A stretch of 37,040 bases of DNA from a virus (IMGVR_UViG_3300045988_150299:1-37040); one strand, 5' to 3'. Numbered from the stretch's first letter, positions 1,201 through 35,184 are shown. The notes: generated by a model not told the origin, from the letters alone. Made by a program: numbers and translations.

Positions 1201-1602
1201 CTATTTGTAAAACAAAACTTGCAACGAATAATCTCTGTAATTTCTTTCTCCAAAGTTAACATTTATGTAATTTCCAGATATAGTTGTATTAAGTTCTGCT
1301 AATTTAGCAGAGCCAGTCATTATCATTTTAAATACTCTTCCATTAGTAATAGTAGCTTCATAACCTGCTATAGTTTTATATCCTGCATTTAAAATACAAT
1401 AATTCCACCCTCTATATTCTTCTGGTATCAAAAAACTTTTTCCAGTATTACTTGATGTTAAAGTAACTACTGCCCATTTCTTAGCGGTTTTCTCTAAGTT
1501 AGATAACCTATCATCTAACCCTTTCATAGTTATTGGAGTAGTAGAAGATTTTCCTTCCAGTGCTGATGTCCTATCATTTAAATTTTTCATAGTGATAGCC
1601 AT
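1201..1602 (-). CDS. Hypothetical virion or fibre-associated protein
   Basis: 133-aa ORF. Its start overlaps the stop of the upstream fibre gene by one base (both at 1602). Assignment is by position only. Confidence 0.4.
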   Translation of the reverse strand: MAITMKNLNDRTSALEGKSSTTPITMKGLDDRLSNLEKTAKKWAVVTLTSSNTGKSFLIPEEYRGWNYCILNAGYKTIAGYEATITNGRVFKMIMTGSAKLAELNTTISGNYINVNFGERNYRDYSLQVLFYK

Positions 1603-2714
1603 TATACCCTACCCCCTTTTAAATCTTCTATTTCCTTACTCATTTCTTTTACAGCTTCAATAAGTAAAGCTACTATATGTCCATACATAACAGTTAAATA
1701 ACCATTGTCCTCATTTTTGACCACAACTTCTGGCAATACTTTTTCAATCTCTTGAGCTATAACTCCAGCTTGTCTTTGTCCTGTACCTAACATAGTGAAT
1801 GTGTACCCATTGATTTGATTTACTTTTTTAAGAGCATTAGTTATCTTTGTTATATCAGTTTTTAATCTTCTATCTGAATAAGCCGTAACTTCTCCGTTTG
1901 AAACAATAGCTCCTGTTACTGTTAAGTTTCCATTAATAGTACCACCGGATTTTGGAAGTTTTGTATTATCAGCTATTGTAATATTGGCACTACCATCATA
2001 ACTAACTCCGTTGATAGTTCTAGCAGTTTGTAATTTTGTAGCAGTAGCAGAGTTCCCTGTACAAGCACCAGCACTATCAGCAGTTGTAGCACTCTTTGCT
2101 TTATCTTCTTTACCTAATTTACCATCTAATAAATTATTAGTTTCAGTTTTAGTATATACATCTGGTTTGTTTATTAATTTTTCATAATCGGTAGTCCCAG
2201 GTTGACCGCTTTGTCCTGGTATCCCTTGTTGACCTCTAGGGGCAGTAAAATCATATGTGCTACCATTAGTTAAAGTCACAGTATAAACATTTCCGCCATC
2301 TTCATTAGTATTCTTAAATGTTATACTTTTTACTCCTACTCCATCAACTCCTTTAGGACCTTGAATACCTTGCTCTCCAGTATCTCCTTTAGGACCTTTA
2401 GGACCAGTATTTCCAGTTATACCTTGTTCCCCTTTATCTCCCTTAGGTCCTTGAATACCTTGAGGACCTCGAGGACCTTGTGGTCCAGTATCTCCCTTAT
2501 CTCCTTTAGGACCTTGAATACCCTGCTCTCCAGTATCTCCCTTAGGACCTTGAGGACCTTGTATTCCTTGTTCTCCTTTTGCACCAGGTAAACCTTGAAT
2601 ACCTTGTTCCCCTTGTATTCCTTGTTCTCCTTTAGGACCTTGAGGTCCGATATCTCCTTGTTCTCCTTTAGGACCTTGAGGACCTACAACATTACCTATA
2701 ATTAATTTCGGCAT
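1602..2714 (-). CDS. Collagen-like tail fibre with a C-terminal intramolecular chaperone (peptidase S74) domain
   Basis: 38 uninterrupted Gly-X-Y triplets (aa 11-125). The C-terminus [13 protein letters not shown]...[15 protein letters not shown]...[15 protein letters not shown] matches the S74 auto-cleaving chaperone pattern (Ser codon at 1875-1877). Confidence 0.8.
2340..2684 (-). repeat. Gly-X-Y collagen-like triplet array 1 (coding repeat)
   Basis: Periodic ggaCCTtgaggacc-type 9-nt units on the plus strand, translating to [12 protein letters not shown] triplets on the minus strand. Confidence 0.9.
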
Positions 2715-2727
2715 AATTAAAACCTCC

Positions 2728-4107
2728 TTATTCTAAAATTTCTAATACTAAATTTCCATCTTCATCTATTGAAAAATTTGGTTGAGTATCATTCTCGTTA
2801 TAATATACAACTAAGTTTCCATCTTCTATTTGGAATATGTACTGACTATTTATAGGAGTGATTACAGCAGTTCCATTATCTCCTTTATCTCCCTTATCTC
2901 CTTTAGGACCTTGTATTCCTTGAGGACCTTGAGGTCCGATATCTCCCTGCTCTCCCTTAGGTCCTTGTTCTCCTTGTATTCCTTGAATGCCTTGTTCGCC
3001 TTTTAGTCCTTGAAGTCCTCTTTCTCCTTGAATGCCTTGTTCCCCTTGTATTCCTTGAATACCTTGAGGACCTGTTATTCCTTGAGGACCTTGAGGTCCA
3101 ACTTCTCCTTGTATTCCTTGCTCTCCTTGAATACCTTGAGGTCCATTTTCCCCTCTTTCTCCTTGGTCTCCTTTATCTCCTTTGAATCCTCTTTCTCCTC
3201 TTTCTCCTTTCGGTCCTTCTGGTCCATCATTGCCTTGAATACCTTGAGGACCTCTTCGTGCTAATAATTCTCCTATAATTTCTCCGTCTTCACGGTAGAC
3301 TGTATAGATGTTTCCTTCTGGTAATTCTTTATTAAAACCAACACTTGCTATTGAGTACCCTCTTTCTCCTTTTAAATCTTGCATATGATAGTCTATATAA
3401 TCTTGGATTTCTTTTTCTGCTTCTTCTATTTTTTCTTGTGTATATTTATCTAATTTTAAATAACTATCTGTTTTAAGATAATTATCAATAATTTCTTTTA
3501 AATCTTTTTCTAATTGAATAACTAGCTCTTTTACTCTATTATCCAAATCTTCAAGTAATATTTTTTTTGTATCTTCATAAATCTTATTGAGCAACTCTTG
3601 ATATTTCTCAAATAGTGTAGTTACAGGATAAGTAGCTATCCCATCATCTGACATATACCAGATAGAACCTTTTGGTAAATCTGGTAAACCTAATTGTTTG
3701 GGTATTCCACTATCTACAAATAATTGAGATTTTATAATTTCTTTTTCTGTTCCAAGTATTGCAGCTTTTATTTTAGTAAACATATTATTTAGATTTTCTG
3801 GTGTAATATCTCCTGTACTACTAAAAGTAAAATCTAAATCAAAATAAGGTTCAGACTTAACTATCTTAATATCTGTGTAATCATTCCATATGCCATCTGG
3901 GTAGTTAGTAAAATCAATGTTTCCAGCATTGTATGTGTAATAATCTTTAGGTATAAGGAATATAAAAGCTGTGCTAGTTATAGGATTTTGTTTTTTTCCG
4001 TAAACTTCACAACTTGTCATTAAGTCTGAAAAGCTAGTAGCATACTGTTGTCTATTCTCTTCTAACTTAAAATACTCTTTTTTAAAATTTAACATTTGCT
4101 TAAACAC
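2728..4107 (-). CDS. Collagen-like tail fibre or tail spike protein
   Basis: 459 aa: a non-repetitive N-terminal domain of about 285 aa, then 42 Gly-X-Y triplets (aa 286-412) and a short C-terminal knob. It sits directly after TerL and before the second fibre. Confidence 0.7.
2872..3252 (-). repeat. Gly-X-Y collagen-like triplet array 2 (coding repeat)
   Basis: 42 consecutive GXY triplets. It shares identical stretches of up to 23 bp with array 1 (for example ggaccttgaggtccgatatctcc at about 2636 and about 2921). Confidence 0.9.
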
Positions 4108-4115
4108 CTCTTTTC

Positions 4116-5627
4116 TTAATAATAAGTTGTTAGTGGTCCATCAAAACTATCTTTTAGATATATGCTAGCAAATATCATAGCAGTTCTAAATGAATCTGCG
4201 TCATCAGAAGCTTTATCATTTGCGTCGTGGTCTGGTATATCTAAGTAACAGTTCATGGACTTGTTATATTTTTTGACATAGCCTCCTAATTGTATAACTC
4301 CTATGTTACACTCGTTATTATCTATCTCTACATTGTCAAACTCCTTTCTTATATAGTTGATTTGATTTATTAATGTAGTCATATCATTTTTAGCTAGCTC
4401 TGTCTTAGACAGAGTTCTTACATCACTAAAATAATTTAATCTTATGTAGTCACTTCTTTTTGAAGTTGCACTCCATTCCTCGACATCTCCATCATGTGGT
4501 AGTACCATAGTAGGCTGCATATAGTACCCATTATCTTTGCACCATTTCTTTATATATTGGCAGCAGTGGTCTGGTCCTTGCCCAGTAACTCTATAATGTT
4601 TTATGAATCTAATTCTATTATTGTGAGGGTTTTTTTGAAAAAACCACAATACTGTATGGTCCCTTTTTCCTATATCCCAAGCAACATATAAAGGTTGTTG
4701 TGTCCAGAAATGCCCTGTGTATATTTGAGTATATCTTCTACTTACACTATCTAATAACTCTTCATACCTACCATAAAACTTTATCCTTTCATCTTCATAA
4801 GCTTTTTTTAGTTGTTCTCCATACCAAGCACCAACTAGATGAGTATTGATTTTACATTCCCACTCTTGAGCGTATGAATCTGGGTCCATAGTAAGAGCTT
4901 GTTTTCTAAGTTCTTTATCATTTATTACCCTCTCCCCTTTGTAGTTCAAAGAATCTTTTCCAGATTGAATATCTACATACCACATATCTTTAATTTCTTT
5001 ATTTTCTGGTTTACTTAGGATAGTGAAGTAATCTATAAAAAGTTTAGTAAACCAATTATATTTACCCCTCGGTGTAGAGATAAATATTACAAAACCGAAG
5101 TCGGTATTGTTAATAACCATATCAACTGCAGGTTTCATATATTGATAGAACTTTTCTTTTATAAGTGCTGCCTCTGTGTAAATAACTCCTCTAGCTCCTA
5201 CTCCTACACTTGCGTCTGGGTTATCTCCTCCACGAAAGAAGATTTTAGCTCCATTAAATAAAGTTACACTCCAATCGGATTTGTTAACTTTAGGTCCTCT
5301 TGGATTTGCTAGTATTTCATCTGGTATGAGGTTTTCAAGTAAAGGTAAACCGTTTAAGGTTTTCCCATCTACAACTATTTCTTTTACCTGTCTAAAGTAT
5401 GGTGCATAGATATAGTAGTTTCCTGGGTGTTGTATTGCAGCTAGTATCATAATGAGTAATGAAATAAAGTCCTTACCATATCTTCTATGAGCCATTAGTG
5501 CAAAATACTTTTTCTTATTTTCCAGGACATTGTCCAGAAGTTCTTTCTGTCCTTTGTGTAGATATTTAATAACTTTTTTATAACTGATAGTTACTCTTCT
5601 TTTTGCTGCTCTTCCTAAAAAATTCAA
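4116..5627 (-). CDS. terL: Terminase large subunit
   Basis: Walker A-like AHRRYGKD, Walker B-like GVIYTE, coupling motif ISTPRG, and nuclease motif [13 protein letters not shown] start 5 nt after the SD AAGGAGGTG. Confidence 0.75.
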
Positions 5628-5691
5628 AACTCCACCTCCTTACCTGTTTGATAGTTTGAAATTCCATCTTTTAAAAGTTGGAAAATAAAAA

Positions 5692-5717
5692 AAGGACAAC
5701 CCTTTTAGGTTGTCCTT
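5692..5717 (-). terminator. Rho-independent terminator (10-bp stem aaggacaacc/ggttgtcctt, 6-nt loop, U-run on the minus strand)
   Basis: Perfect stem read directly. The minus strand continues tttttttatttt. Confidence 0.7.
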
Positions 5718-5739
5718 TGATTTTTCTGTAAATGGAAAA

Positions 5740-5761
5740 AGGCAACTCTAAAAGGTTGCCT
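5740..5761 (-). terminator. Rho-independent terminator-like hairpin (aggcaac/gttgcct)
   Basis: 7-bp stem, 8-nt loop, followed by ttttcc on the minus strand. Confidence 0.5.
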
Positions 5762-5776
5762 GATTTTCTTAAAATT

Positions 5777-5805
5777 ATTATATCATTAAATACTAAAAAA
5801 GTCTA
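5777..5805 (-). promoter_or_regulatory. Sigma70-type promoter, extended -10 (TAGACT-17-TGaTATAAT)
   Basis: -35 is the reverse complement of 5800-5805. -10 is the reverse complement of 5777-5782. The spacer is exactly 17 bp and a TG lies one base upstream of the -10. Confidence 0.4.
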
Positions 5806-5806
5806 T

Positions 5807-5877
5807 AAAAAGAAAAAGGCTGGTATAGTTGCAGCTATACCAGCGATGAACATACTAAGTCTTTCGTTCTTCTTAGT
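5807..5877 (-). ncRNA. Predicted small RNA of about 70 nt, antisense in trans to the start of the small peptide ORF (candidate type I antitoxin RNA)
   Basis: Promoter TTGAAC-17-TGtTATAAT. A 5' hairpin (5877-5872/5859-5854) has the 12-nt loop AAGAACGAAAGA. A strong terminator follows (stem 5844-5835/5828-5819, then CUUUUUCUUUUU). Confidence 0.5.
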
Positions 5878-5883
5878 AATTAA

Positions 5884-5929
5884 ATTATAACAAAAATAAC
5901 TAGAAAGTTCAAGATATTTTTGTTATAAT
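5884..5929. promoter_or_regulatory. Back-to-back divergent promoters built on a perfect 14-bp inverted repeat
   Basis: attataacaaaaat (5884-5897) and atttttgttataat (5916-5929) are exact inverted repeats. Each arm supplies a TGtTATAAT extended -10. The -35 elements are gttcaa (5907-5912, minus strand) and tagaaa (5901-5906, plus strand), both at 17 bp. Confidence 0.55.
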
Positions 5930-5953
5930 AAGTCTAGCCCACCAAGAAAGGGG

Positions 5954-6034
5954 GTGAACATCATTAAGTCTTTCGTTCTAAGACTAATAATACTGGTTAT
6001 TCTGTTTTTCTTAGTAAACAGAGTTGCATTATAA
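5954..6034 (+). CDS. Small hydrophobic peptide (23-26 aa), candidate type I toxin
   Basis: SD AAGGGGGTG at 5948-5956. The frame is (GTG)-AAC-ATC-ATT-..., giving (M)NIIKSFVLRLIILVILFFLVNRVAL with TAA at 6032-6034. The likely start is ATC or ATT, 5-8 nt after the SD core. It has a single predicted TM helix. Confidence 0.4.
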   Translation: MNIIKSFVLRLIILVILFFLVNRVAL

Positions 6035-6046
6035 TTAGTCAAAAAA

Positions 6047-6075
6047 GGGGAGTGTTGCAGCACTCCTCCTTTTTT
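6047..6075. terminator. Bidirectional rho-independent terminator
   Basis: Stem ggagtg/cactcc with loop ttgcag. T-run 6070-6075 on the plus strand and an A-run at 6041-6046 (a U-run on the minus strand). It lies immediately after the stop of the 1633-aa gene. Confidence 0.65.
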
Positions 6076-15977: not shown

Positions 15978-16134
15978 CTATAAGTTTTTCTATGACAGAT
16001 AATTGTTCAAGAGTAGTCGCTGCTTCAATCCCTACTCTTCCAACAACTAAAAAGAAAGTTCTAGTTTTAATATATTTCTTTTTTAATAGATACCTCATTA
16101 ATTTATAAAACATTAAAAATAATTTATTTCTCAT
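15940..16134 (-). CDS. Hypothetical small protein (uncertain)
   Basis: 64-aa ORF with SD GAGGAGG 6 nt upstream of its ATG. It overlaps the end of the recombinase gene and the start of the next gene. Confidence 0.3.
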   Translation of the reverse strand: MRNKLFLMFYKLMRYLLKKKYIKTRTFFLVVGRVGIEAATTLEQLSVIEKLIDGGINIEKARSD

Positions 16135-16819
16135 TTTGTGCCTCCTCTAGTATAATATTTTTCTTATACTTGTAATATGTATTCTTAGTTATTCCTAGCA
16201 GTGTAAAGACTTCTATATCTTTAAGATTTCCTCCAAAATCTTTAGCTAGTTTTTTTATTTTCTCTCTCATCTCCTTTTCTTTCTTGGTAGTATAAGTATC
16301 TCCTTGTTTTCTACCTAATACAGTTCCTTTAGCTTTGGTAACTCTTAGTCCCTCTTTTGTTCTTTCTCTAAGGTCTAATACTTCCTTTTCAGCCTGGTCA
16401 AATGCTATTTTAATTTGTTCTTGAGCTAATATCTTCAATACTTCATTGGTTGCGTCTATGTATATATCAGCTATTTTATTTCCTGTTGAATCTATTTTAT
16501 TCTCTAAAGCTTTTTTATAAAGGGCTGTATTGATATATCCCTCTTTTAAAAATATAAGTTCAATATCTCTTTCTACAAAATTAAAATATTCTTTTATTCC
16601 CTCTTCTGCATTTCTACTCATTCTACTAACAGAATCAAATATAATTGTATCTCCGGGTTTAACCATTTTTTTTAGCTTACTCCATTCTTTTCTATCTGTT
16701 GTAGTTCCTGTATATGCTTCTTGAAATACTTTAGCAGTTGGATATATCTTTATGATATTTTCCACCTGTCTTAAAATATTTTGTTTTTTTGTAGATACTC
16801 TGCAATAACCATATATCAT
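16124..16819 (-). CDS. Small serine recombinase (resolvase/invertase family)
   Basis: N-terminal catalytic motif YCRVSTKKQ, then FDSVSRMSRN and LRERTKEGL. C-terminal HTH (LGITKNTYYKYKK). At 231 aa it has no large-serine-integrase extension. Confidence 0.85.
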   Translation of the reverse strand: MIYGYCRVSTKKQNILRQVENIIKIYPTAKVFQEAYTGTTTDRKEWSKLKKMVKPGDTIIFDSVSRMSRNAEEGIKEYFNFVERDIELIFLKEGYINTALYKKALENKIDSTGNKIADIYIDATNEVLKILAQEQIKIAFDQAEKEVLDLRERTKEGLRVTKAKGTVLGRKQGDTYTTKKEKEMREKIKKLAKDFGGNLKDIEVFTLLGITKNTYYKYKKNIILEEAQNEK

Positions 16820-22181: not shown

Positions 22182-23453
22182 CTATTCTGATTTTTTAGCT
22201 GCTTTTGTAGTTGTAGTAGTTGTTGCTGGTGCTTCTTGTGTTTCAGTAACTGCTGCTTGTTTGTTAGCTGCTCTTAATCTTTCTAGTTCTAACTCTTTTT
22301 CTACTCTCTCCATTCTCATTTTCTCAATCTCTTTTTCCTGCTCTAGTTGTTCATTATTTGCTAATGACATTGTATTCATAGCCATAGCAGATACTGGTTC
22401 TACTGAGGCTGCAGCTGCTCCTGTTGTTCTCTTATACTTGAAAAAGAATACTCCCTCTGGATTTAATAATTCTGTTGAGTTATACACTTCAACATCTAAT
22501 AAGTATGATTTTTTATCAGCTATATAGTTAGCTTCTGGTGTTACTGATACATCTTTGTTATCTTGTCCAAAACTTCTTTCAACCATAACTACAAAATATC
22601 CTACTCCTTCACTACCTGTTGGATATAAAGTTTTGTCAAATTGGAATAAGCTTTCTACATGTCCACCCATCAACATAGATAATGGTTTTCCTGTTTTTCT
22701 TGTTTCTCCCTCTCCAAAATCTTTACTTGAGAATCTTTCAGCATTTGCAAGCTCTGTATTCCCTTCTACACCAGACACTATAGCTATTCTCAATCCTTGA
22801 GCTTCTGCTGCTTCTTGAGCTTGTAACATCATTTGTCTGAATAGTTTTATATTTTCTGGAGTATCAAACTCTTTTGTTTCATCTCCGTAAAATTGACTTT
22901 CTGGAATAGTTAAATCAAATGTTTTGTTGTTATTGTCATAAACTGTTCTTTTCTTATTTGTTATACAATCTTTGAAAAGTTCAGCTATTCTTTTAGCACA
23001 TTTTCCACGAGTTGCAGCTATTTGTGCATCTATTATTACCGATTTTTCATCTAGTTGAGAACGGTCGAAATCTCTTCTCTTAACATATACAGGACATTCC
23101 ATTCCTGTTGGATATACTCTAATACTTTGTAAGAAAGTTCCTGTATCTTGCCCTTTAACCTCTCCTGGTGTATAATTAGGTCCAGACATAGCTTGTGTGT
23201 CATCTATATCTCTAGCTTCTAATCTTCCAGATACATAGAATAAAGAATAAGCCTCTTTTGTTGAAGCTGATTTTTCAAACCAACCCTCAAGTGGCATTTT
23301 GTTTGTTGTATTTAAGGCTCTTTTTACACTATTTACATATTTAGCCTGTTCTCCTGCTGAAAGGTTTACGTTTCCGTATTCATATCCTCCAGCTCCAGCA
23401 AATAGCTGGATATTTAATCCTGTGCTTCCTAATAAAGTTTTTTCATTTCTCAA
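22182..23453 (-). CDS. Major capsid protein
   Basis: 423 aa, located after the portal and scaffold genes. It carries the N-terminal L27-like leader LNIQLFA. A terminator lies directly downstream. Confidence 0.55.
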   Translation of the reverse strand: MRNEKTLLGSTGLNIQLFAGAGGYEYGNVNLSAGEQAKYVNSVKRALNTTNKMPLEGWFEKSASTKEAYSLFYVSGRLEARDIDDTQAMSGPNYTPGEVKGQDTGTFLQSIRVYPTGMECPVYVKRRDFDRSQLDEKSVIIDAQIAATRGKCAKRIAELFKDCITNKKRTVYDNNNKTFDLTIPESQFYGDETKEFDTPENIKLFRQMMLQAQEAAEAQGLRIAIVSGVEGNTELANAERFSSKDFGEGETRKTGKPLSMLMGGHVESLFQFDKTLYPTGSEGVGYFVVMVERSFGQDNKDVSVTPEANYIADKKSYLLDVEVYNSTELLNPEGVFFFKYKRTTGAAAASVEPVSAMAMNTMSLANNEQLEQEKEIEKMRMERVEKELELERLRAANKQAAVTETQEAPATTTTTTKAAKKSE

Positions 23454-23471
23454 GTATTCCTCCTTAAAATC

Positions 23472-24167
23472 TTATTTTATAAAATCCCAATAAAATGGGT
23501 CATCTTGCTTTTTAGCTTGTGCATATTCTTTTAATTTATTCATTAAACCTTTATCATTTGTATCTAAAGATTGATTATAAGCCTCAATGAATCCATCATG
23601 TGTATAATCTGTTGAAAGCTGTGTTTTTCCAACTCCTACTACACTTCCTGTACTTCCTGCTTTCATTTCCATGTATTCCTTTAGGATTTGAGCTCCTATT
23701 GCATTTTCTGCCATAGCTCTATATACTATCTGTCTATCTGTGTCTTTCTCTGCTCCTATGAAGTTATTTATTGCTTCCATACTTGCATTAAGTTCTGGAG
23801 TGAAAGCTGCTTTTTGTTCTGCTAGATAAGCTTTTCTATCATCTAGTCTTGATTTAATGTACTCTGGAGTGTAACCTTTTTCTTGAGCCTCTGTGATATA
23901 TGGTGCTATATCTCCAATCTCTTGGTAATCTTCTGCTTTTATTCCTTCCCAAGTTAATGGCTCTACTTTAGGTTCTGCCCCTGCTCCATTATCTCCACTT
24001 GGTTGTGGTGGTTCTCCCCCAGCTCCTGTATTTACTGTTGGCTCTGGATTTGGTGTAGGTTCTCCTCCTGTATCTCCTCCCTCTGCTCCTCCAAATAATT
24101 GGATATTAAATTTAAATCTTTCTTTATCAGTCATTTTCTTCTTTTGCCTCCTTTGTAAATATCTCAA
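23472..24167 (-). CDS. Scaffolding protein (probable true start at the ATG at 24134)
   Basis: It lies between the portal and capsid genes. From 24134 the N-terminus reads MTDKERFKFNIQLFGG, followed by a Gly/Pro-rich linker and a helical C-terminus. Confidence 0.5.
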   Translation of the reverse strand: MRYLQRRQKKKMTDKERFKFNIQLFGGAEGGDTGGEPTPNPEPTVNTGAGGEPPQPSGDNGAGAEPKVEPLTWEGIKAEDYQEIGDIAPYITEAQEKGYTPEYIKSRLDDRKAYLAEQKAAFTPELNASMEAINNFIGAEKDTDRQIVYRAMAENAIGAQILKEYMEMKAGSTGSVVGVGKTQLSTDYTHDGFIEAYNQSLDTNDKGLMNKLKEYAQAKKQDDPFYWDFIK

Positions 24168-24348
24168 TATATAAACTGTTTGCTCCTGTTATCTCCTTTA
24201 CTTTACCTGTTGTATCAATTCCTTTTTCATTCATAATAGATACTTTGTTATGCTCAAGTATTAGATATAACTCAAACAATCTTTTTAAAGCTCTATCATC
24301 TCTATATCTTCTCTTTAGGATTTCAAATTCTTTTACATCTTCTGTCAT
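24127..24348 (-). CDS. Hypothetical small head-module protein
   Basis: 73 aa. Its ATG overlaps the portal stop (ATGA). Confidence 0.4.
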   Translation of the reverse strand: MTEDVKEFEILKRRYRDDRALKRLFELYLILEHNKVSIMNEKGIDTTGKVKEITGANSLYIEIFTKEAKEEND

Positions 24349-25856
24349 TGCTCTATCATTCCCCCTTGTTGTTGTGCAGCTATCATAGCGTTCATTTCCT
24401 CAACTTGCTTTTCTGTTTCCTCTCCAGATTTCCACTCTTTGTTATTGATTCTAAACCTTTTTTGTTGAGCATTTATGTATTCTGCTTGGTTCATATTAGC
24501 TGCTGCAACTTGAGGTCCCAGAGTGCTTGCTATATTTTGAAAATACAACATATTTCTTTCAAGGTCGTCTTGGTCTTGAGCAATAGTCAAGGCATTGTAG
24601 AATCTTATCTTTAATCTTGGGTTTTCCTGTAAAGCTTTAATTTTAGATATATCTATAATGCTAATCTTTTGTAAGCATTGAAAAACTTTTATAACTATCT
24701 CTCTTAAAAGTTCCCTTTGCATTAGTGCATATGTTGGCTCTATTTGCTTAGCGAACTCTGTTGTTACTAGCTGTGTTGTTGTAGCAGTAACATTCTTTAG
24801 CTGGTCTAAGTTTTGAGCCGTTTCAAATATGTTGATGTAGAATATATCTCTTAAAAGTTCCTTGTACATGTCTAGGTTAAAGAACTCCATGTTAGCGTTC
24901 TCTCCCCTGTTGAATGGTATTATCTGATTTTGCCCTGGCGATTGTCCCATCATAGATATAGCTCCTGGCTCATCTATTCTTGAGTTCTGAATATATTTAG
25001 CTTGCCCATAACCTAAATAGCTTGGTCTAGCTTGTTTCTTAGCAATACGTCTGATGTTAGCTTTAACTTCTTTTAGTCCCTCAATCTCCATTATCGCTTT
25101 AACACAAGGTCCTATGCCATATGGACTATCTCCAATACTTTCATATCTTGCAACTATCCAAGGATTATAGTTATCAATTCTATAATCTAAAATATCTTCA
25201 AACTCATTTGAAGTAGATACTACATAGTGAAACTTTTTAGTTTCTTGGTCGTATATTGTTCCCTCCCATAGTTCAATCTCGTCATCTCGCGACATTTTTT
25301 GAACTTTTTCAGAGTTATAAGCCTTTTCTCCAAAAAGATTAAGAATTTGATGTTTTCTCACTTTACCTGCATTGTAGAATGTATCTCCAGGTTGTTTACC
25401 TCTTCTTTTAGTAAGATAAACATTTATATTGGGTACTGGTTGAAATTCCACGGGATTTGCAATTTTACCAGTAAATCTAACTTTAAAAACTGCCGTTCCT
25501 ATTAGGTAGTCCATAAGAATTACAGCTTTCTCTGTTTCAAAGTTCGAATTTTCTTGAATCTCATCAAATACTATTTCTGTTATGTGTCTAAAGATAATCT
25601 TGTCATCTCTTGATATATCTTCAAACCTTGGTGTTTCTATCCAAGCCCAGATATGATTACTATTAAGTATCATAGCTGATAACTTGTTAGCTAACTTAGT
25701 AGCATATGCTAGTCCTGTACTGTCTACACCATTAAGATTAATTTCTCTTGGTAGAAAGTGTGCTCTAGCTTTCAAATACCAAGCTAGTATTACATTTCTT
25801 TCCTGTTGTGCCTCCTGGAATCTACTACGAAATAGATTTTTAATTCTATCTTCCAT
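24345..25856 (-). CDS. Portal (head-to-tail connector) protein
   Basis: 503 aa, upstream of scaffold and capsid as in T7-like modules. Size and position are typical. Confidence 0.6.
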   Translation of the reverse strand: MEDRIKNLFRSRFQEAQQERNVILAWYLKARAHFLPREINLNGVDSTGLAYATKLANKLSAMILNSNHIWAWIETPRFEDISRDDKIIFRHITEIVFDEIQENSNFETEKAVILMDYLIGTAVFKVRFTGKIANPVEFQPVPNINVYLTKRRGKQPGDTFYNAGKVRKHQILNLFGEKAYNSEKVQKMSRDDEIELWEGTIYDQETKKFHYVVSTSNEFEDILDYRIDNYNPWIVARYESIGDSPYGIGPCVKAIMEIEGLKEVKANIRRIAKKQARPSYLGYGQAKYIQNSRIDEPGAISMMGQSPGQNQIIPFNRGENANMEFFNLDMYKELLRDIFYINIFETAQNLDQLKNVTATTTQLVTTEFAKQIEPTYALMQRELLREIVIKVFQCLQKISIIDISKIKALQENPRLKIRFYNALTIAQDQDDLERNMLYFQNIASTLGPQVAAANMNQAEYINAQQKRFRINNKEWKSGEETEKQVEEMNAMIAAQQQGGMIEQ

Positions 25857-25865
25857 AGTATCTCC

Positions 25866-26141
25866 TTATCCTATTGTCTGGGTACTACTTTTCTTTAGTA
25901 GTCCTAAATTACCTTGTCTTATGCTCTCTTGGAATTGTATCGCAGTATTCTTTTGCTTGTCTTTTTCTGCTTGCTGCTTTTTAGCCTCTGCCTCTTGTTG
26001 TTTTTTTAGTTCCTCTTCCATTCTCTTTTGCTGCTTTTTAGTACCACTAAAGTCAGTAGCTCCAAGCGTAATGGTATCAACAAGTCCTCCTAATACATTT
26101 CCACCACCACCAAACAATTGGATATTTGGTTTAAATTTTAT
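25866..26141 (-). CDS. Small head-module protein with an L27-like leader (the track ORF starts at the TTG at 26117; ATA at 26141 is the proposed start)
   Basis: The frame is open upstream of the TTG. GGAGG lies 9 nt before ATA. Reading from ATA gives (M)KFKPNIQLFGGGG, which matches the leaders of the capsid and scaffold proteins. Confidence 0.45.
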   Translation of the reverse strand: MKFKPNIQLFGGGGNVLGGLVDTITLGATDFSGTKKQQKRMEEELKKQQEAEAKKQQAEKDKQKNTAIQFQESIRQGNLGLLKKSSTQTIG

Positions 26142-26142
26142 A

Positions 26143-26622
26143 TTATCTCTCCTCCTTTTCCCATGCTTCTACATCATAGAATTTATCAAGGATTTTTCTT
26201 GCTTTTCTAAAAGTCCCAACTTTTCTAAAGTTATATCTTTTAAAAAACTTCATAGCCAGTTTATATGCTGGACTTTCTGGAACTATATTTAATTCTATTT
26301 TTTTGTAGAGCTTATCAAGCATACTACAAAATTTAGCGAAATCATCTAAGAACTCTTTTCTCTCTGTGAGGTTATCTCCTAGAAAAATAAAGTCTAGTGA
26401 TATTATTTTGTCATGTGGTATGTTATAGATACAGCCCATATAACCTACTATGTGTCCATCATGGATAGATAACATCATCAGTTCATCTAGCCCTTTTATA
26501 TTTAGGTCATCTAATGAACCTGTGAAAAACTTATATTTTTCAATGTTTGCTTGTTGCTCCTCTTCTAGTATTTCTTTTAGCACTAGAAAAGCTTTATCTT
26601 CTCTTGATACTCCCTCAAGCAT
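26143..26622 (-). CDS. GNAT-fold acetyltransferase-like protein
   Basis: HIVGYMG strand and the C-terminus AYKLAMKFFKRYNFRKVGTFRKA...FYDVEAWE are typical of GNAT. The canonical Q/RxxGxG/A motif is not obvious. Confidence 0.4.
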   Translation of the reverse strand: MLEGVSREDKAFLVLKEILEEEQQANIEKYKFFTGSLDDLNIKGLDELMMLSIHDGHIVGYMGCIYNIPHDKIISLDFIFLGDNLTERKEFLDDFAKFCSMLDKLYKKIELNIVPESPAYKLAMKFFKRYNFRKVGTFRKARKILDKFYDVEAWEKEER

Positions 26623-27111: not shown

Positions 27112-28187
27112 TCTAACTCTGCCCCCTCTTCTCCTAGTCTTATTTTTATACTAACTTTAGCTATTTTTTTGAGTAGTTTTTCCAATCTTTCAAAGTTCTT
27201 GGAATAAGACTTTTTAATCTCTCCAAGTTTTTCTAACTCTTCCAGCTTTTCAATAACTTTCTTTTTCTGGTATTGAATAGCTCTTTTTTTAATACTCATA
27301 TTATTTTCAGTCATTACAACATCAAGTAATCTAATATCAAATATTAAATACTCTTTCATCATAAGTCTTTCTGCTAACCCCTTAGTTCCTGGAGCAACTA
27401 TCTTTTTTAATTCTGCGATGTCATAGTTTAACTCTTTGACTATCTGCTCTGTAAGTATTGCTCCTATTGTTTTTCTAAGTGATGAAGCTAGATTATCTTT
27501 AGTTATTCCACCTAAATGATTTAAGTTGTAGGTCTTGAGGTGCGGAGGTCTTAGTGTCAACTCTCCTCTTAATGCTTGTCTTTTCTTTACTCCCTCTTTT
27601 CCCGTATCTTCCATCTCTTTTCTTTTGGAATAGATTTTAAAGTAAGCCTTGCTATCTCTTGGTCTTTTACCTTTTTCTCTAAAGTCTACTCCGTCAAGTT
27701 CCAATCTTTTTTTGTTGTCTGTATCAAAATACATTCTTGAGGTTGGAAAGATATTTTTATAGGCTCTGTATATCAAATTTAAAACTTGATAATAATTTCT
27801 AATGTTCTCAACTTCTAATTGGTTTGAGAGGTCTAGACTTGTTATAACTATATCCTCTTCTCTTACAAGTTCCCCTGTTATGCTTCTAAGTATTAAGATT
27901 AATTCTTGATGTACTTGAGCAATAACTTTTTTATTTGTTACTAGCTTGTAATTGTCATTGTTATCATATCTGGAATAACTAAAAGATATTGTTATAGTTA
28001 TAGAGTTTCTTTTCTCCTCTACTCCTATAAAGTTTAACCAGCTAAATTTTTTTAGCTGGATATTTTTATATAATATTCTTTTATTTTCTGCTTGTGCCTC
28101 TTCTTTCAGTAATAGATTAGCTGACCCGATTATAAAATCAAAGTCAGTTTGTCTAACTGAATAATTTATACTTGCGGTATCTACAAT
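27099..28187 (-). CDS. Rep_trans (pT181 RepC-like) rolling-circle replication initiator-like protein (the track ORF begins at the TTG at 27776; the ATT at 28187 is the proposed start)
   Basis: 137 stop-free codons lie upstream of the TTG and contain no ATG, GTG or TTG. SD AAGGGGGTG (28202-28194) lies 6 nt before the ATT that follows a TAG. Motifs ITSLDLS, RMYFDTD, KIYSKRKEMED and LRGELTL parallel RepC TRLDLAF, KYFGVRD, RIYNKKQERKD and WRVEIEL. Confidence 0.5.
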   Translation of the reverse strand: MVDTASINYSVRQTDFDFIIGSANLLLKEEAQAENKRILYKNIQLKKFSWLNFIGVEEKRNSITITISFSYSRYDNNDNYKLVTNKKVIAQVHQELILILRSITGELVREEDIVITSLDLSNQLEVENIRNYYQVLNLIYRAYKNIFPTSRMYFDTDNKKRLELDGVDFREKGKRPRDSKAYFKIYSKRKEMEDTGKEGVKKRQALRGELTLRPPHLKTYNLNHLGGITKDNLASSLRKTIGAILTEQIVKELNYDIAELKKIVAPGTKGLAERLMMKEYLIFDIRLLDVVMTENNMSIKKRAIQYQKKKVIEKLEELEKLGEIKKSYSKNFERLEKLLKKIAKVSIKIRLGEEGAELEWQE

Positions 28188-28391
28188 CTAACCCACCCCC
28201 TTTTAATTTTCTAAAAGATAGCTTTAAGTTTTAAAACTATCTCTAAGAAAATCAGGTATATTTTATTTTTTTATATGCTGCTCTCTCTAATATAAACGGG
28301 AGCATTATATATAATTTTATGTCAAAAAATTTTTTTAAAAACATAGAATTTATGCTAGTTTCAGAAGATTTTTTCTTACTTTTATACCCTC

Positions 28392-28417
28392 AAAAACGCA
28401 ATTTTTTTTGCGTTTTT
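28392..28417. terminator. Bidirectional terminator hairpin (aaaaacgcaa/ttgcgttttt)
   Basis: Perfect 10-bp stem with a T6 loop, A/T runs on both sides. Confidence 0.55.
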
Positions 28418-28445
28418 TGGGTAAAAAAATATTTATTAGTATGTT

Positions 28446-33152: not shown

Positions 33153-33194
33153 CAGTCCTCTCCAGCTCTTAATTTTAGAGAGCTAGAAACAAGA

Positions 33195-33329
33195 TACTGT
33201 GAAGTTTTGTCAGAATAGTGTGAAGTTTTGTCAGAAATAGAGGGGTATAGTGTGAAGTTTTGTCAGCCCATACTGTGAAGTTTTGTCAGAATAGTGTGAA
33301 GTTTTGTCAATAGTGTGAAGTTTTGTCAG
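33195..33329 (+). repeat. Iteron array: six 19-bp direct repeats TA(G/C)TGTGAAGTTTTGTCA(G/A)
   Basis: Copies start at 33195, 33216, 33248, 33271, 33292 and 33311, mostly 19-23 bp apart. A truncated copy lies at 33338-33345 and a core-only copy at 33069-33080. The array is directly upstream of the Rep_3 gene. Confidence 0.85.
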
Positions 33330-33418
33330 TTTATTAATAGTGTGAAAAAAAATAAAAAAATGTTGTATAAAAAGAAAATATAAGTTAAAATTATATCAGA
33401 GTGAAAAGGGGGTAAGAC

Positions 33419-34378
33419 ATGGAAATTAAAAATGAAGTTGTAGAATACTCAAAAGATTTTGCTACCAGCTTCAATGAGTTTGGAAGTTATGAACTTGATT
33501 TAATTGTAACTTTAGCTTATGCTGCTAGAAAAAAAATTAAAGACCATATGAATGTAAATACAAATGAGAATGTAAATTTGTTTTTAGACCCTAAAGTCAT
33601 AAAAAAAATGGTTCAAGGAAATGTAAGTACCAAAAGAATAGAAGAGGCTTTGAAAAACATTTTTAATACAAGTGTTCAAATAAAAAAAGATGGGTACAAG
33701 CTGCATAAACACATATTTGAAACTTTGATGTATACAGAAGATAAAACAGAAATTATATTTGAATTAAAAAAAGATTTTATCCCACTTTTTTTTAATTTAA
33801 GCAATAATTTTACAAGACATGAATTACTAGAATTTACAGGTTTAAAGGGTAGACATTCCAAGAGGCTCTATCAAATAGTTATGAGTTATAAAAATTTAAA
33901 GTCTTGGGAATTTGCACCAGATGAATTTTTAAAAATTTTAAATACTCAATATAGATGGGTAGATGTAGAAACTAAGATAATAAAAAAAGCTGCAGAAGAA
34001 CTAGCAGAGAAAACTAATATAAAAAATCTAAAAATGGAAAGAGTAAGAACAGGAAAATTTATTACTAAAATAATTTTGAGTTGGGATATAGAGCAAATGG
34101 AAGTGCTAGATAAAGATGGAACTGAAACAGAAATAAAAGAGGCTGAAAAAGTTGAATCATTAACATTTGAACAGTTAGAAGATTTGGAAAAAGCTTTAGA
34201 AAAAGCTAGAAAAAATAGGTTTATAGAACCTTATTTAACACTTGAAAATGTTGGAAAACTTATGGAGAACTTTCCATATGAGCAATTGAAAAAAGGCTTG
34301 ATTTCATGTTACAAAAATATCAATATTGAGATTAGAAGTTTTAGTTACATATTTAATCATATTAAGGGGGTAAAATGA
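33419..34378 (+). CDS. Rep_3 / RepB-family iteron-binding plasmid replication initiator
   Basis: The N-terminus EYSKDFATSFNEFGSYELDLIVTLAY and the central FTRHELLEFTGLKGRHSKRLYQIVMSYKN...FAPDEFLKILN fit the Rep_3 winged-helix pattern. Iterons lie upstream. Confidence 0.7.
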   Translation: MEIKNEVVEYSKDFATSFNEFGSYELDLIVTLAYAARKKIKDHMNVNTNENVNLFLDPKVIKKMVQGNVSTKRIEEALKNIFNTSVQIKKDGYKLHKHIFETLMYTEDKTEIIFELKKDFIPLFFNLSNNFTRHELLEFTGLKGRHSKRLYQIVMSYKNLKSWEFAPDEFLKILNTQYRWVDVETKIIKKAAEELAEKTNIKNLKMERVRTGKFITKIILSWDIEQMEVLDKDGTETEIKEAEKVESLTFEQLEDLEKALEKARKNRFIEPYLTLENVGKLMENFPYEQLKKGLISCYKNINIEIRSFSYIFNHIKGVK

Positions 34379-35184
34379 AAGTAGTATCATTTATAAATCA
34401 AAAGGGTGGAACAGGAAAAACAACAGGGGCAAGGGAAGTCGCTGGAATGTTAGCACTTAATTTTAATAAAAAAATATTGCTGATAGATTGCGACTACCAG
34501 CAGAACTTAACACAAAGTTTTATATTTGATGATGAAGAAAAAGACTTATTCAAAGCTTTAAAAGAAAAGTCTTTAGCAAATAATATAATACAAATACATG
34601 AACTAAAAATAGTAGAAAATAAAGATACAGGTATTAATGAAGTAGAAAAAGGAAGATATATTTTAGATTTTATCAAAGGTAGTTATGACCTAAGAAACCT
34701 AGATTTAACAATGGATAAATGGGACCAAGAAATGATATATTTCAATCTAAAATCAGAGCTTGAAAAATTAGATTATGACTATGTAATATTTGATTGTAGA
34801 CCTAGTATAGATTCTTTAGAAAGAGCTGTGTTATCTCTTAGCAATTATGTTTTAACTCCAATAATACCACATATATATAGTGTTCAAGGGTTAAATATAA
34901 TGCTGCAATTTATAGAAGCTTTAAAAGAAAATTTAAACACTCCATTTATACACCTTGGATATTTTAACCAGGTGCCACTTGATAAAGATATTTTAAAAGA
35001 TATAGAAGAGATTAGAGAGGGGTATTCCAATATTTTAAAAACTCAAATTAGAGATAATGGGAAATTAAAATATTGTGCTAGAGATGGATATTTTATAGGA
35101 CAATATAGCCCTACAAGTAATGGAGCTAAAGACTTTAAAAATCTTACTAAGGAGTTGTTAGAGATATGGGAAAACCAACAATAA
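34375..35184 (+). CDS. parA: ParA-family partition ATPase
   Basis: Deviant Walker A NQKGGTGKTT. Its start overlaps the rep stop. Confidence 0.85.
   Translation: MKVVSFINQKGGTGKTTGAREVAGMLALNFNKKILLIDCDYQQNLTQSFIFDDEEKDLFKALKEKSLANNIIQIHELKIVENKDTGINEVEKGRYILDFIKGSYDLRNLDLTMDKWDQEMIYFNLKSELEKLDYDYVIFDCRPSIDSLERAVLSLSNYVLTPIIPHIYSVQGLNIMLQFIEALKENLNTPFIHLGYFNQVPLDKDILKDIEEIREGYSNILKTQIRDNGKLKYCARDGYFIGQYSPTSNGAKDFKNLTKELLEIWENQQ

Follow-up and report, generated by a model that had tools for sequence, protein, structure and literature searches.

Probable mimicry of the host Prp cleavage site by three head-module proteins of a T7-like phage of Fusobacterium

Three genes in the head module of the viral DNA IMGVR_UViG_3300045988_150299:1-37040 (37,040 nucleotides (nt), referred to here at its full length as the window) begin with the same short leader, and the question raised by this locus is what such a leader does on a major capsid protein, a scaffold and a small protein encoded upstream of the portal gene. 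The leaders resemble the N-terminal extension of ribosomal protein L27 that the cysteine protease Prp of the host normally removes, and the original prediction for this DNA proposed that they mimic that site. The analysis presented here leads to the same answer: it is likely that the three precursors carry a host-matched L27-type leader and would be cut by host Prp after Phe, in a hijack of the type described for staphylococcal phage 80alpha. This core reading was supported by every in-silico test available.

Six-frame translation of the whole window yields exactly three copies of N-I-Q-L-F-[A/G], each at the N-terminus of a minus-strand head-module gene. These are LNIQLF↓A of the major capsid protein (nt 23417-23397), FNIQLF↓G of the scaffold (nt 24110-24090) and PNIQLF↓G of the small pre-portal protein (nt 26129-26109), the arrow marking the predicted cut; the positions are exactly those originally predicted. 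The wider pattern N[ILV]Q[LF]F[AG] gives three matches and none elsewhere, as compared with a mean of 0.015 and a maximum of 1 in 200 mononucleotide shuffles, and a relaxed pattern, Q[LFIVMHY][FLY][AGS], occurs in none of the 42 other gene N-termini among the 45 inspected. The claim that three head-module proteins share a short leader thus holds, with three copies, all N-terminal, where about 0.015 would be expected. The precursors begin MRNEKTLLGSTGLNIQLF↓AGAGG (capsid), MTDKERFKFNIQLF↓GGAEGG (scaffold) and (M)KFKPNIQLF↓GGGGN (small protein), so that all motifs fall within the first ~10-20 residues. N-I-Q-L-F is present in all three and fits the Prp consensus (D/N)-[L/I]-Q-[F/L]-F↓small residue. 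Position P6 is Leu in the capsid protein, Phe in the scaffold and Pro in the small protein, where the hydrophobic-P6 feature is only partly retained, and P1' is Ala in the capsid protein and Gly in the other two; Gly at P1' is also found in 3 of 23 related capsids.

Thirty-three capsid homologues were found, and those down to ~39% identity keep the motif and vary in its flanks; where a capsid gene call is without it, the start has mostly been misplaced to a TTG inside QLF, as in P0015 ('MFAREAG'). A conservation profile was drawn from 23 distinct capsid leaders. In all of them P3 is Gln, P1 is Phe, P2 is Leu, Val or Ile and P1' is only Ala, Gly or Ser; P5 Asn and P4 Ile are each kept in 21/23 and P6 Leu in 20/23, and the residues on either side (P10-P7 and P2'-P8') are variable. 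The reported determinants of Staphylococcus aureus Prp are a P1 Phe that stacks on the catalytic His, hydrogen bonds to P3 Gln, hydrophobic residues at P4 and P6, and a P1' residue of restricted size, which according to crystal-structure work must be small (PMC9405229). The positions conserved in the phage leaders are these same ones.

An exhaustive capsid profile search returned only 25 representative clusters, and leader-bearing capsids (P0241, P0243, P0244, P0250) occur scattered among others that have no leader. The latter, which begin MAG..., align to the family profile only from about position 18-24, at or just after the predicted cut, as expected if mature proteins lack the leader. Scaffolds of relatives read F↓AEGG at the cut, and further afield the site is again present in scaffolds, as LNIQIF↓A or LNIQLF↓A.

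The host can be named at the genus level. A 9.2-kb contig (JAXYYL010000044.1) of a Fusobacterium gonidiaformans assembly (GCA_037419695.1) is 96-99% identical to the window and bridges its ends, and the holin and a 283-aa (amino acid) protein fall into clusters of at least 90% identity with the RefSeq proteins WP_337743018.1 and WP_337743021.1 of the same species. The earlier expectation of a Prp-containing, low-GC lineage is borne out and sharpened to Fusobacterium by this contig; the G+C content of the window is ~30%. In PLSDB, the best full-length matches of its Rep3 protein have 23-29% identity and come from plasmids of Fusobacterium varium, Cetobacterium and Leptotrichia. For the host of the window no weight was given to the bins of metagenome-assembled genomes (MAGs) that hold two relatives, L001 (Faecalimonas) and L002 (Filifactoraceae), the contigs being short or binned and only 40-47% identical.

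When L27 proteins were sought with a Fusobacterium-type probe and the best 120 matches were looked at, every named match was from Fusobacteriota, and the matches were true L27 proteins. In Fusobacterium and Fusobacteriaceae they start MQFLFNIQLF↓AHKK, MQFLLNIQLF↓AHKK, MKFILNIQLF↓AHKK (F. necrophorum) or with similar variants, as do the closest unnamed relatives, and the published N-termini agree: M-QFLFNIQLF↓AHKK in F. nucleatum (PMC9405229, Table 2) and LFNIQLFAHKK in F. animalis (PMC12341114). Leptotrichiaceae L27 has NLQLF, not NIQLF, and nearly all tabulated Firmicutes have NLQ[FL]F, Erysipelothrix with DIQLF being an exception (PMC9405229); since both groups thus use NLQ[LF]F, the Ile at P4 of the phage leaders is tuned to a Fusobacterium host. 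In five Fusobacterium loci (L024-L026, L028, L029) rplU is followed by a 111-aa PF04327 Peptidase_Prp gene and then directly by rpmA, and the Fusobacterium Prp sequences carry the GHA...VCAA catalytic motifs. Alignment of the leaders with these L27 N-termini shows NIQLF to be identical to the Fusobacterium site. From P6 to P1' the capsid site, LNIQLF↓A, is the one found in F. necrophorum L27, the scaffold FNIQLF equals the site of F. nucleatum and F. animalis L27, and the small-protein leader matches F. necrophorum MKFILNIQLF at 8 of 10 positions and in length, the ATA initiator being counted as Met.

In the mechanism proposed, the capsid protein, the scaffold and the small protein would be made as precursors whose N-terminal 18, 14 and 10 residues, respectively, end in [L/F/P]-N-I-Q-L-F↓[A/G]. 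Host Prp, which normally removes the MxFxxNIQLF extension of L27, would recognise P6-P1' of the phage leaders and cut after Phe, leaving mature products of 405 aa (capsid protein), 206 aa (scaffold) and 81 aa (small protein). Three points of this scheme are inferences: the cut itself, the acceptance of Gly at P1', and initiation of the small protein at ATA. The coordinates of the features concerned are collected in Table 1.

Table 1. Coordinates in the window of the leader-bearing genes, their neighbours and other features.
Feature	Coordinates	Strand	Details
Major capsid protein gene	22182..23453	-	423 aa, TTG start, predicted HK97 fold, C-terminal coiled-coil extension
Capsid leader MRNEKTLLGSTGLNIQLF	23400..23453	-	18 aa; predicted Prp cut after F18; P1' Ala codon 23399-23397
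Scaffolding protein gene	23472..24134	-	220 aa, ATG start, Gly/Pro-rich linker after leader, then conserved body
Scaffold leader MTDKERFKFNIQLF	24093..24134	-	14 aa; predicted cut after F14; P1' Gly codon 24092-24090
Open reading frame (ORF) of 73 aa between portal and scaffold	24127..24348	-	conserved in relatives, no leader
Portal protein	24345..25856	-	503 aa, T7-type head-to-tail connector, no leader; PF12236 1.1e-29, phrog_332 1e-40
Small pre-portal protein	25866..26141	-	91 aa from probable ATA start; 81 aa after predicted cleavage
Small-protein leader (M)KFKPNIQLF	26112..26141	-	10 aa; P1' Gly codon 26111-26109
Shine-Dalgarno sequence GGAGG	26151..26155	-	9 nt upstream of ATA; kept in all relatives
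GNAT-like ORF	26143..26622	-	159 aa; TAA stop one nucleotide before the small protein's ATA
Small serine recombinase (resolvase)	16124-16819		
Iterons	33194-33329		
Rep3 initiator	33419-34378		
ParA	34375-35184		

The identity of the capsid protein does not come from family searches, as the 423-aa protein has no Pfam or PHROG match. Its AlphaFold2 model (23 homologues) has a mean pLDDT (predicted local distance difference test score) of 73, with residues 1-27 disordered, and a Foldseek search of the model against the PDB gave 318 matches at E<=1e-3, phage capsids and encapsulins heading the list. Judged by this model the protein is an HK97-fold major capsid protein, and the label 'capsid' of the original prediction is confirmed. 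Its TTG start at 23453 lies 5 nt after AAGGAGG. At window positions 22182-22420 (capsid residues ~345-423) the protein carries a C-terminal extension of ~80 aa with a long helix predicted at residues 366-405, and relatives' capsids of 334-347 aa are without it; the extension may be a built-in decoration or cementing arm, and its position recalls the gp10B extension of T7.

The 220-aa protein encoded between the portal and capsid genes is taken as the scaffold because of its linker and conserved body, because the protein of one relative matches phrog_2303 'head scaffolding protein' (3.6e-5), and because its C-terminus co-varies with capsid type. A search of its alignment profile against the PDB gave chance matches only. 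The co-variation is seen in locus L020 (4154-6009, sample ERZ27273350), a near-identical phage in which the capsid is swapped for leaderless P0033 (39% identity over 55% of the query). The swap takes in the capsid gene and the last ~45 residues of the scaffold; the L020 scaffold is identical to that of the window for ~170 residues, its last 45 diverge, and scaffold and small protein keep their leaders. Divergence of those 45 aa is what one would expect if the C-terminus of a scaffold binds the capsid protein. The scaffold start earlier placed at ATG 24134 proved correct. A TTG at 24167 was considered as an upstream start and rejected, as several relatives have a stop 12 codons upstream of the motif Asn (P5), which is three codons before that ATG.

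The small-protein gene lies directly upstream of the portal gene in all relatives, and the C-terminus of its product is conserved (..ESIRQGNLGLL..QTIG). This conserved position and weak PHROG matches ('virion structural' and 'internal virion protein', E~1e-3) lend the earlier designation 'third head protein' plausibility but no more; probably it is a minor virion or head-internal protein. BLASTP comparison of the small protein, scaffold and capsid protein with T7 gp6.7, gp7.3, gp9 and gp10A gave no significant similarity, which leaves gene position as the sole analogy between the small protein and gp6.7. Its leader resembles that of the scaffold in both protein and DNA (KFK[FP]NIQLFGG). As this leader is confined to the window's clade and L019, it is a recent gain; the homologues in L001, L002, L012, L017 and L018 are leaderless, with an MG.. 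start that falls on the predicted cut or immediately past it.

The start of the small protein requires separate consideration, as its ORF has no in-frame ATG, GTG or TTG upstream of the motif, and the residue originally given as '(M)' is encoded by ATA (26141-26139), not ATG. Four substitutions among relatives in the leader codons (Pro, Asn, Ile and Gln) are all synonymous, and the codon just upstream of the ATA changes non-synonymously, from AAT to AGC. Together with the nearby GGAGG, this pattern argues that the leader is translated, most likely from the ATA. The ATA is probably used by termination-reinitiation coupling with the upstream GNAT-like gene, and such a weak start codon would suit a low-copy protein. 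It is very unlikely that only the capsid and scaffold leaders are translated, with the small ORF starting instead at TTG 26117 (MFGGGG...) and the upstream KFKPNIQ being an untranslated duplication remnant. Automatic gene calls do give products of 82-83 aa, MFGGGG resembles the MGG.. start of the leaderless homologues, and the window has no canonical start upstream, a TAG interrupting the frame that in L019 is open to an in-frame ATG-ATG further upstream. However, the substitution pattern stands against such a start, the strong GGAGG is 33 nt from the TTG as opposed to 9 nt from the ATA, the position of the ATA one nucleotide past the upstream stop fits termination-reinitiation, and an intact NIQLFG would be improbable without selection. 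Another option, that ribosomes enter the small ORF from the GNAT-like one by programmed frameshifting, was rejected as unnecessary, as there is no slippery site and the strong Shine-Dalgarno sequence and ATA suffice.

The GNAT-like ORF itself, between a gene resembling that of the small terminase subunit (TerS) and the small leader-bearing protein, is kept in all relatives. PF13420 Acetyltransf_4, whose cut-off is 24.3 bits, scores 14.2 bits in the ORF of the window and 25.3 bits in its homologue from L019, and a comparison with PDB sequences gave no match. An acetyltransferase-like ORF inside the head module, beside proteins gaining new Gly/Ala N-termini, is curious.

Could the phage supply the protease itself? 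No protease family turned up when the ORFs of the window were scanned with Pfam and PHROGs, and a phmmer search (--max) with two Fusobacterium Prp sequences against all ORFs of at least 30 aa reached no better than E = 0.019, without an included domain. The statement in the original prediction that no prohead protease gene is recognisable is thus borne out. T7-type heads normally assemble without proteolysis or a prohead protease, and for this reason the absence carries little weight. The further step that had been drawn from it, that maturation depends on the host, is weak in view of the T7-like head, the leaderless capsid of L020, a leaderless Fusobacterium phage described below (FNU4) and the dispensability of cleavage in 80alpha. 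There is only a slight chance that an unrecognised phage-encoded protease, and not host Prp, cuts the NIQLF site. Many ORFs are without a family, and Streptococcus phage Cp-1 trims its capsid with its own protease, of the same MEROPS clan as Prp (PMC9405229), but no ORF of the window resembles Prp or any Pfam or PHROG protease, and such an enzyme would give no reason for the identity of the site with host L27, the genus-specific Ile at P4 included.

A different reading accepts the leader and doubts the importance of its removal. Here the leader would be mainly a signal for assembly, folding or co-localisation, recognised by a common chaperone or possibly by Prp as a binder, with removal incidental or absent. 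In 80alpha, cleavage is dispensable and yet an intact scaffold N-terminus is required for assembly; uncleavable mutants are viable, a pre-cleaved capsid protein is fine, and the authors suggest coordinated folding or chaperone association as a role for the leader (PMC5744158). By analogy, the leader itself, through folding or co-assembly for example, may matter more than its removal. The tag is common to three co-assembling proteins, and the scaffolds of L012 and L018 keep a leader-like N-terminus despite the loss of the P3 Gln, degenerate sites that fit a folding or chaperone role. As the principal explanation this nevertheless appears unlikely, for the conserved positions are exactly those of protease recognition, the small P1' included, and leaderless homologues start at the cut site; a signalling role is also compatible with cleavage occurring as well. 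Considerably less probable is a role as competitive decoy, in which abundant late proteins would titrate Prp, block maturation of pre-L27 and stop host ribosome assembly, perhaps besides being processed. Functional ribosomes require L27 to be cut by Prp (PMC9405229), the capsid protein, produced in very many copies, has the exact P6-P1' site of L27, and positive selection in F. animalis has Prp as one of its strongest targets, at sites in the substrate pocket (PMC12341114). Against this, the phage still needs ribosomes late in infection, substrates with fast turnover are poor inhibitors, and leader-linked host shut-off has not been reported in 80alpha.

Processing by host Prp remains the preferred reading, and several observations weigh against it. 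Cleavage of the three leaders is a prediction from sequence. Two of the three sites have Gly at P1', where documented Prp substrates have Ala or Ser, and the start codon of the small protein is non-canonical. Prp enzymes are reported to be highly specific for their own L27 (PMC9405229), and the L27 proteins compared are those of F. necrophorum and other Fusobacterium, not of F. gonidiaformans itself. About half of the ORFs are without a recognisable family, so that a novel phage protease is possible. The leader, moreover, is not obligatory: the leaderless capsid of L020 has a proper ribosome-binding site and ATG, the L012 and L018 scaffolds have degenerate sites without the P3 Gln (KLKVLFD↓A and ERILFD↓T), and the head proteins of Fusobacterium phage vB_FnuS_FNU4 (L027, OQ808964.1) bear no L27-like leader. 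In FNU4, positions 1397-5361 hold the small protein, portal, small ORF, scaffold and capsid in the same order as in the window, the pre-portal protein being likewise small and of the MG.. type.

FNU4 is the only GenBank phage from a Fusobacterium host among five distant portal matches. Searches of GenBank phages with the capsid protein (tblastn), with 8 kb of DNA (megablast) and with a 25-aa leader (tblastn) were empty, the portal giving distant matches only, and a megablast of 25 kb of the window against PLSDB found no match. As the Fusobacterium contig runs across both of its ends, the window represents the whole genome, ~37 kb long and circular or circularly permuted, of a podophage with T7-like organisation; all metagenomic copies of the phage are ~38 kb or shorter. 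Beyond the head genes, tail tube proteins A and B (phrog_394 and phrog_376) follow in T7 order. Three proteins of 178, 708 and 1633 aa without a family match occupy the place taken in T7 by the internal core proteins gp14-16, and these are followed by the large terminase subunit (TerL) and collagen-repeat fibres. Under a strict test for Autographiviridae, the T7-type portal and gene order are found and the single-subunit RNA polymerase is not, no ORF scanned having matched an RNA polymerase family.

The early region encodes RadC, YqaJ, Rep3 and ParA. Within it, a plasmid-type module (window 33194-35184) consists of about six iterons of 19-21 bp (ATAGTGTGAAGTTTTGTCAGA) directly upstream of Rep3, followed by a ParA ATPase, and the genome has no integrase. 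The phage is probably a podovirus-type phage-plasmid of Fusobacterium, and a full-text search turned up no paper apparently describing a Fusobacterium phage-plasmid. On the minus strand at 1602-4107 lie two collagen-repeat tail-fibre genes, the distal one ending in a Peptidase_S74 intramolecular chaperone domain; the tandem repeats of this region are collagen Gly-X-Y codons. Two stretches of ~0.45-0.67 kb lack a convincing ORF, one upstream of the structural operon (27777-28445) and the other between TerL and the gene of the 1633-aa protein (5628-6073), and these may hold packaging or regulatory sites.

If the three leaders are indeed Prp sites, Prp processing of phage proteins extends to Fusobacteriota, to a podovirus with a T7-type head and to a third protein. 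The NIQLF versus NLQ[LF]F variant could then serve to predict the hosts of uncultured phages from the gut and mouth. The relatives, some with a leader (P1' being Ala or Gly), some with none and some with a degenerate site, form a natural series for studying the function of the tag, which is of relevance to 80alpha too. Prp is pursued as an antibiotic target; Prp inhibitors might affect the production of phages by such hosts as well, and phage pressure might shape Prp evolution. A bolder and rather doubtful proposal is that the leader is a portable, host-tuned 'Prp tag' that is gained (the scaffold leader having been copied onto a minor head protein), retuned to host L27 and lost, and that would do more than allow trimming, in that it could recruit Prp as an assembly hub or compete with pre-L27. 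Were this true, Prp would become an interface of phage-host conflict, which could explain the positive selection in the Fusobacterium Prp pocket (PMC12341114); phage substrates like these could be a selective agent on F. animalis Prp.

The locus combines features of several known systems. Its likeness to T7 lies in the PF12236 portal, in the order of portal, scaffold, capsid, tail tube A and B, internal proteins and terminase, and in having no protease. T7 head proteins undergo no N-terminal processing. Unlike T7, this phage has no RNA polymerase that could be found, and its genome carries plasmid-type Rep3, iterons and ParA. With HK97, T4 and lambda C it would share the removal of N-terminal segments of head proteins during morphogenesis, but those systems use a phage-encoded, packaged protease and long scaffold-like segments, whereas the window has leaders of 10-18 aa, a separate scaffold and, by prediction, a housekeeping protease of the host. 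Fusobacterium L27 (Prp being MEROPS C108; PF04327) continues AHKKG after the cut and the phage proteins continue with Gly/Ala-rich linkers, there being no homology between L27 and the phage proteins beyond the leader.

The closest likeness is to 80alpha, a phage without a prohead protease in which leaders on an HK97-fold capsid protein (gp47) and on a scaffold (gp46) copy the Prp site of host L27. The 80alpha sites are KLNLQHF↓A (capsid) and KFNLQFF↓A (scaffold), that of host L27 is LKLNLQFF↓A (PMC5744158; PMC9405229, Table 1), and the 13-14 residues removed by Prp from capsid protein and scaffold (PMC5744158; PMC9405229) are similar in length to the leaders of the window. The differences are that the host belongs to Fusobacteriota and not Firmicutes, that the site is NIQLF, that the phage is a T7-like podovirus and not a siphovirus, that a third, small protein is tagged and two sites have Gly at P1', and that the case here is made on sequence data. 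The motif is also found on the capsid protein of staphylococcal phage 80 and on the major tail protein of phi13, indicating that the tag is portable (PMC5744158); compared with these, portability is visible here in a small-protein leader that is missing from distant homologues and resembles that of the scaffold. Demonstrated cases of Prp acting on phage structural proteins are confined to staphylococcal siphoviruses; literature of 2025 still limits Prp-site phages to 'some staphylococcal bacteriophages' (PMC12324487), and a full-text search for NIQLF and related strings found no phage report. Mimicry of the host Prp site is thus a known kind of system, documented in the literature consulted for staphylococcal phages only, and its occurrence here in a new host phylum and phage morphotype is well supported; what this case adds is a third tagged protein, evidence for gain and loss of the tag, and a tuning of the site to the genus of the host.

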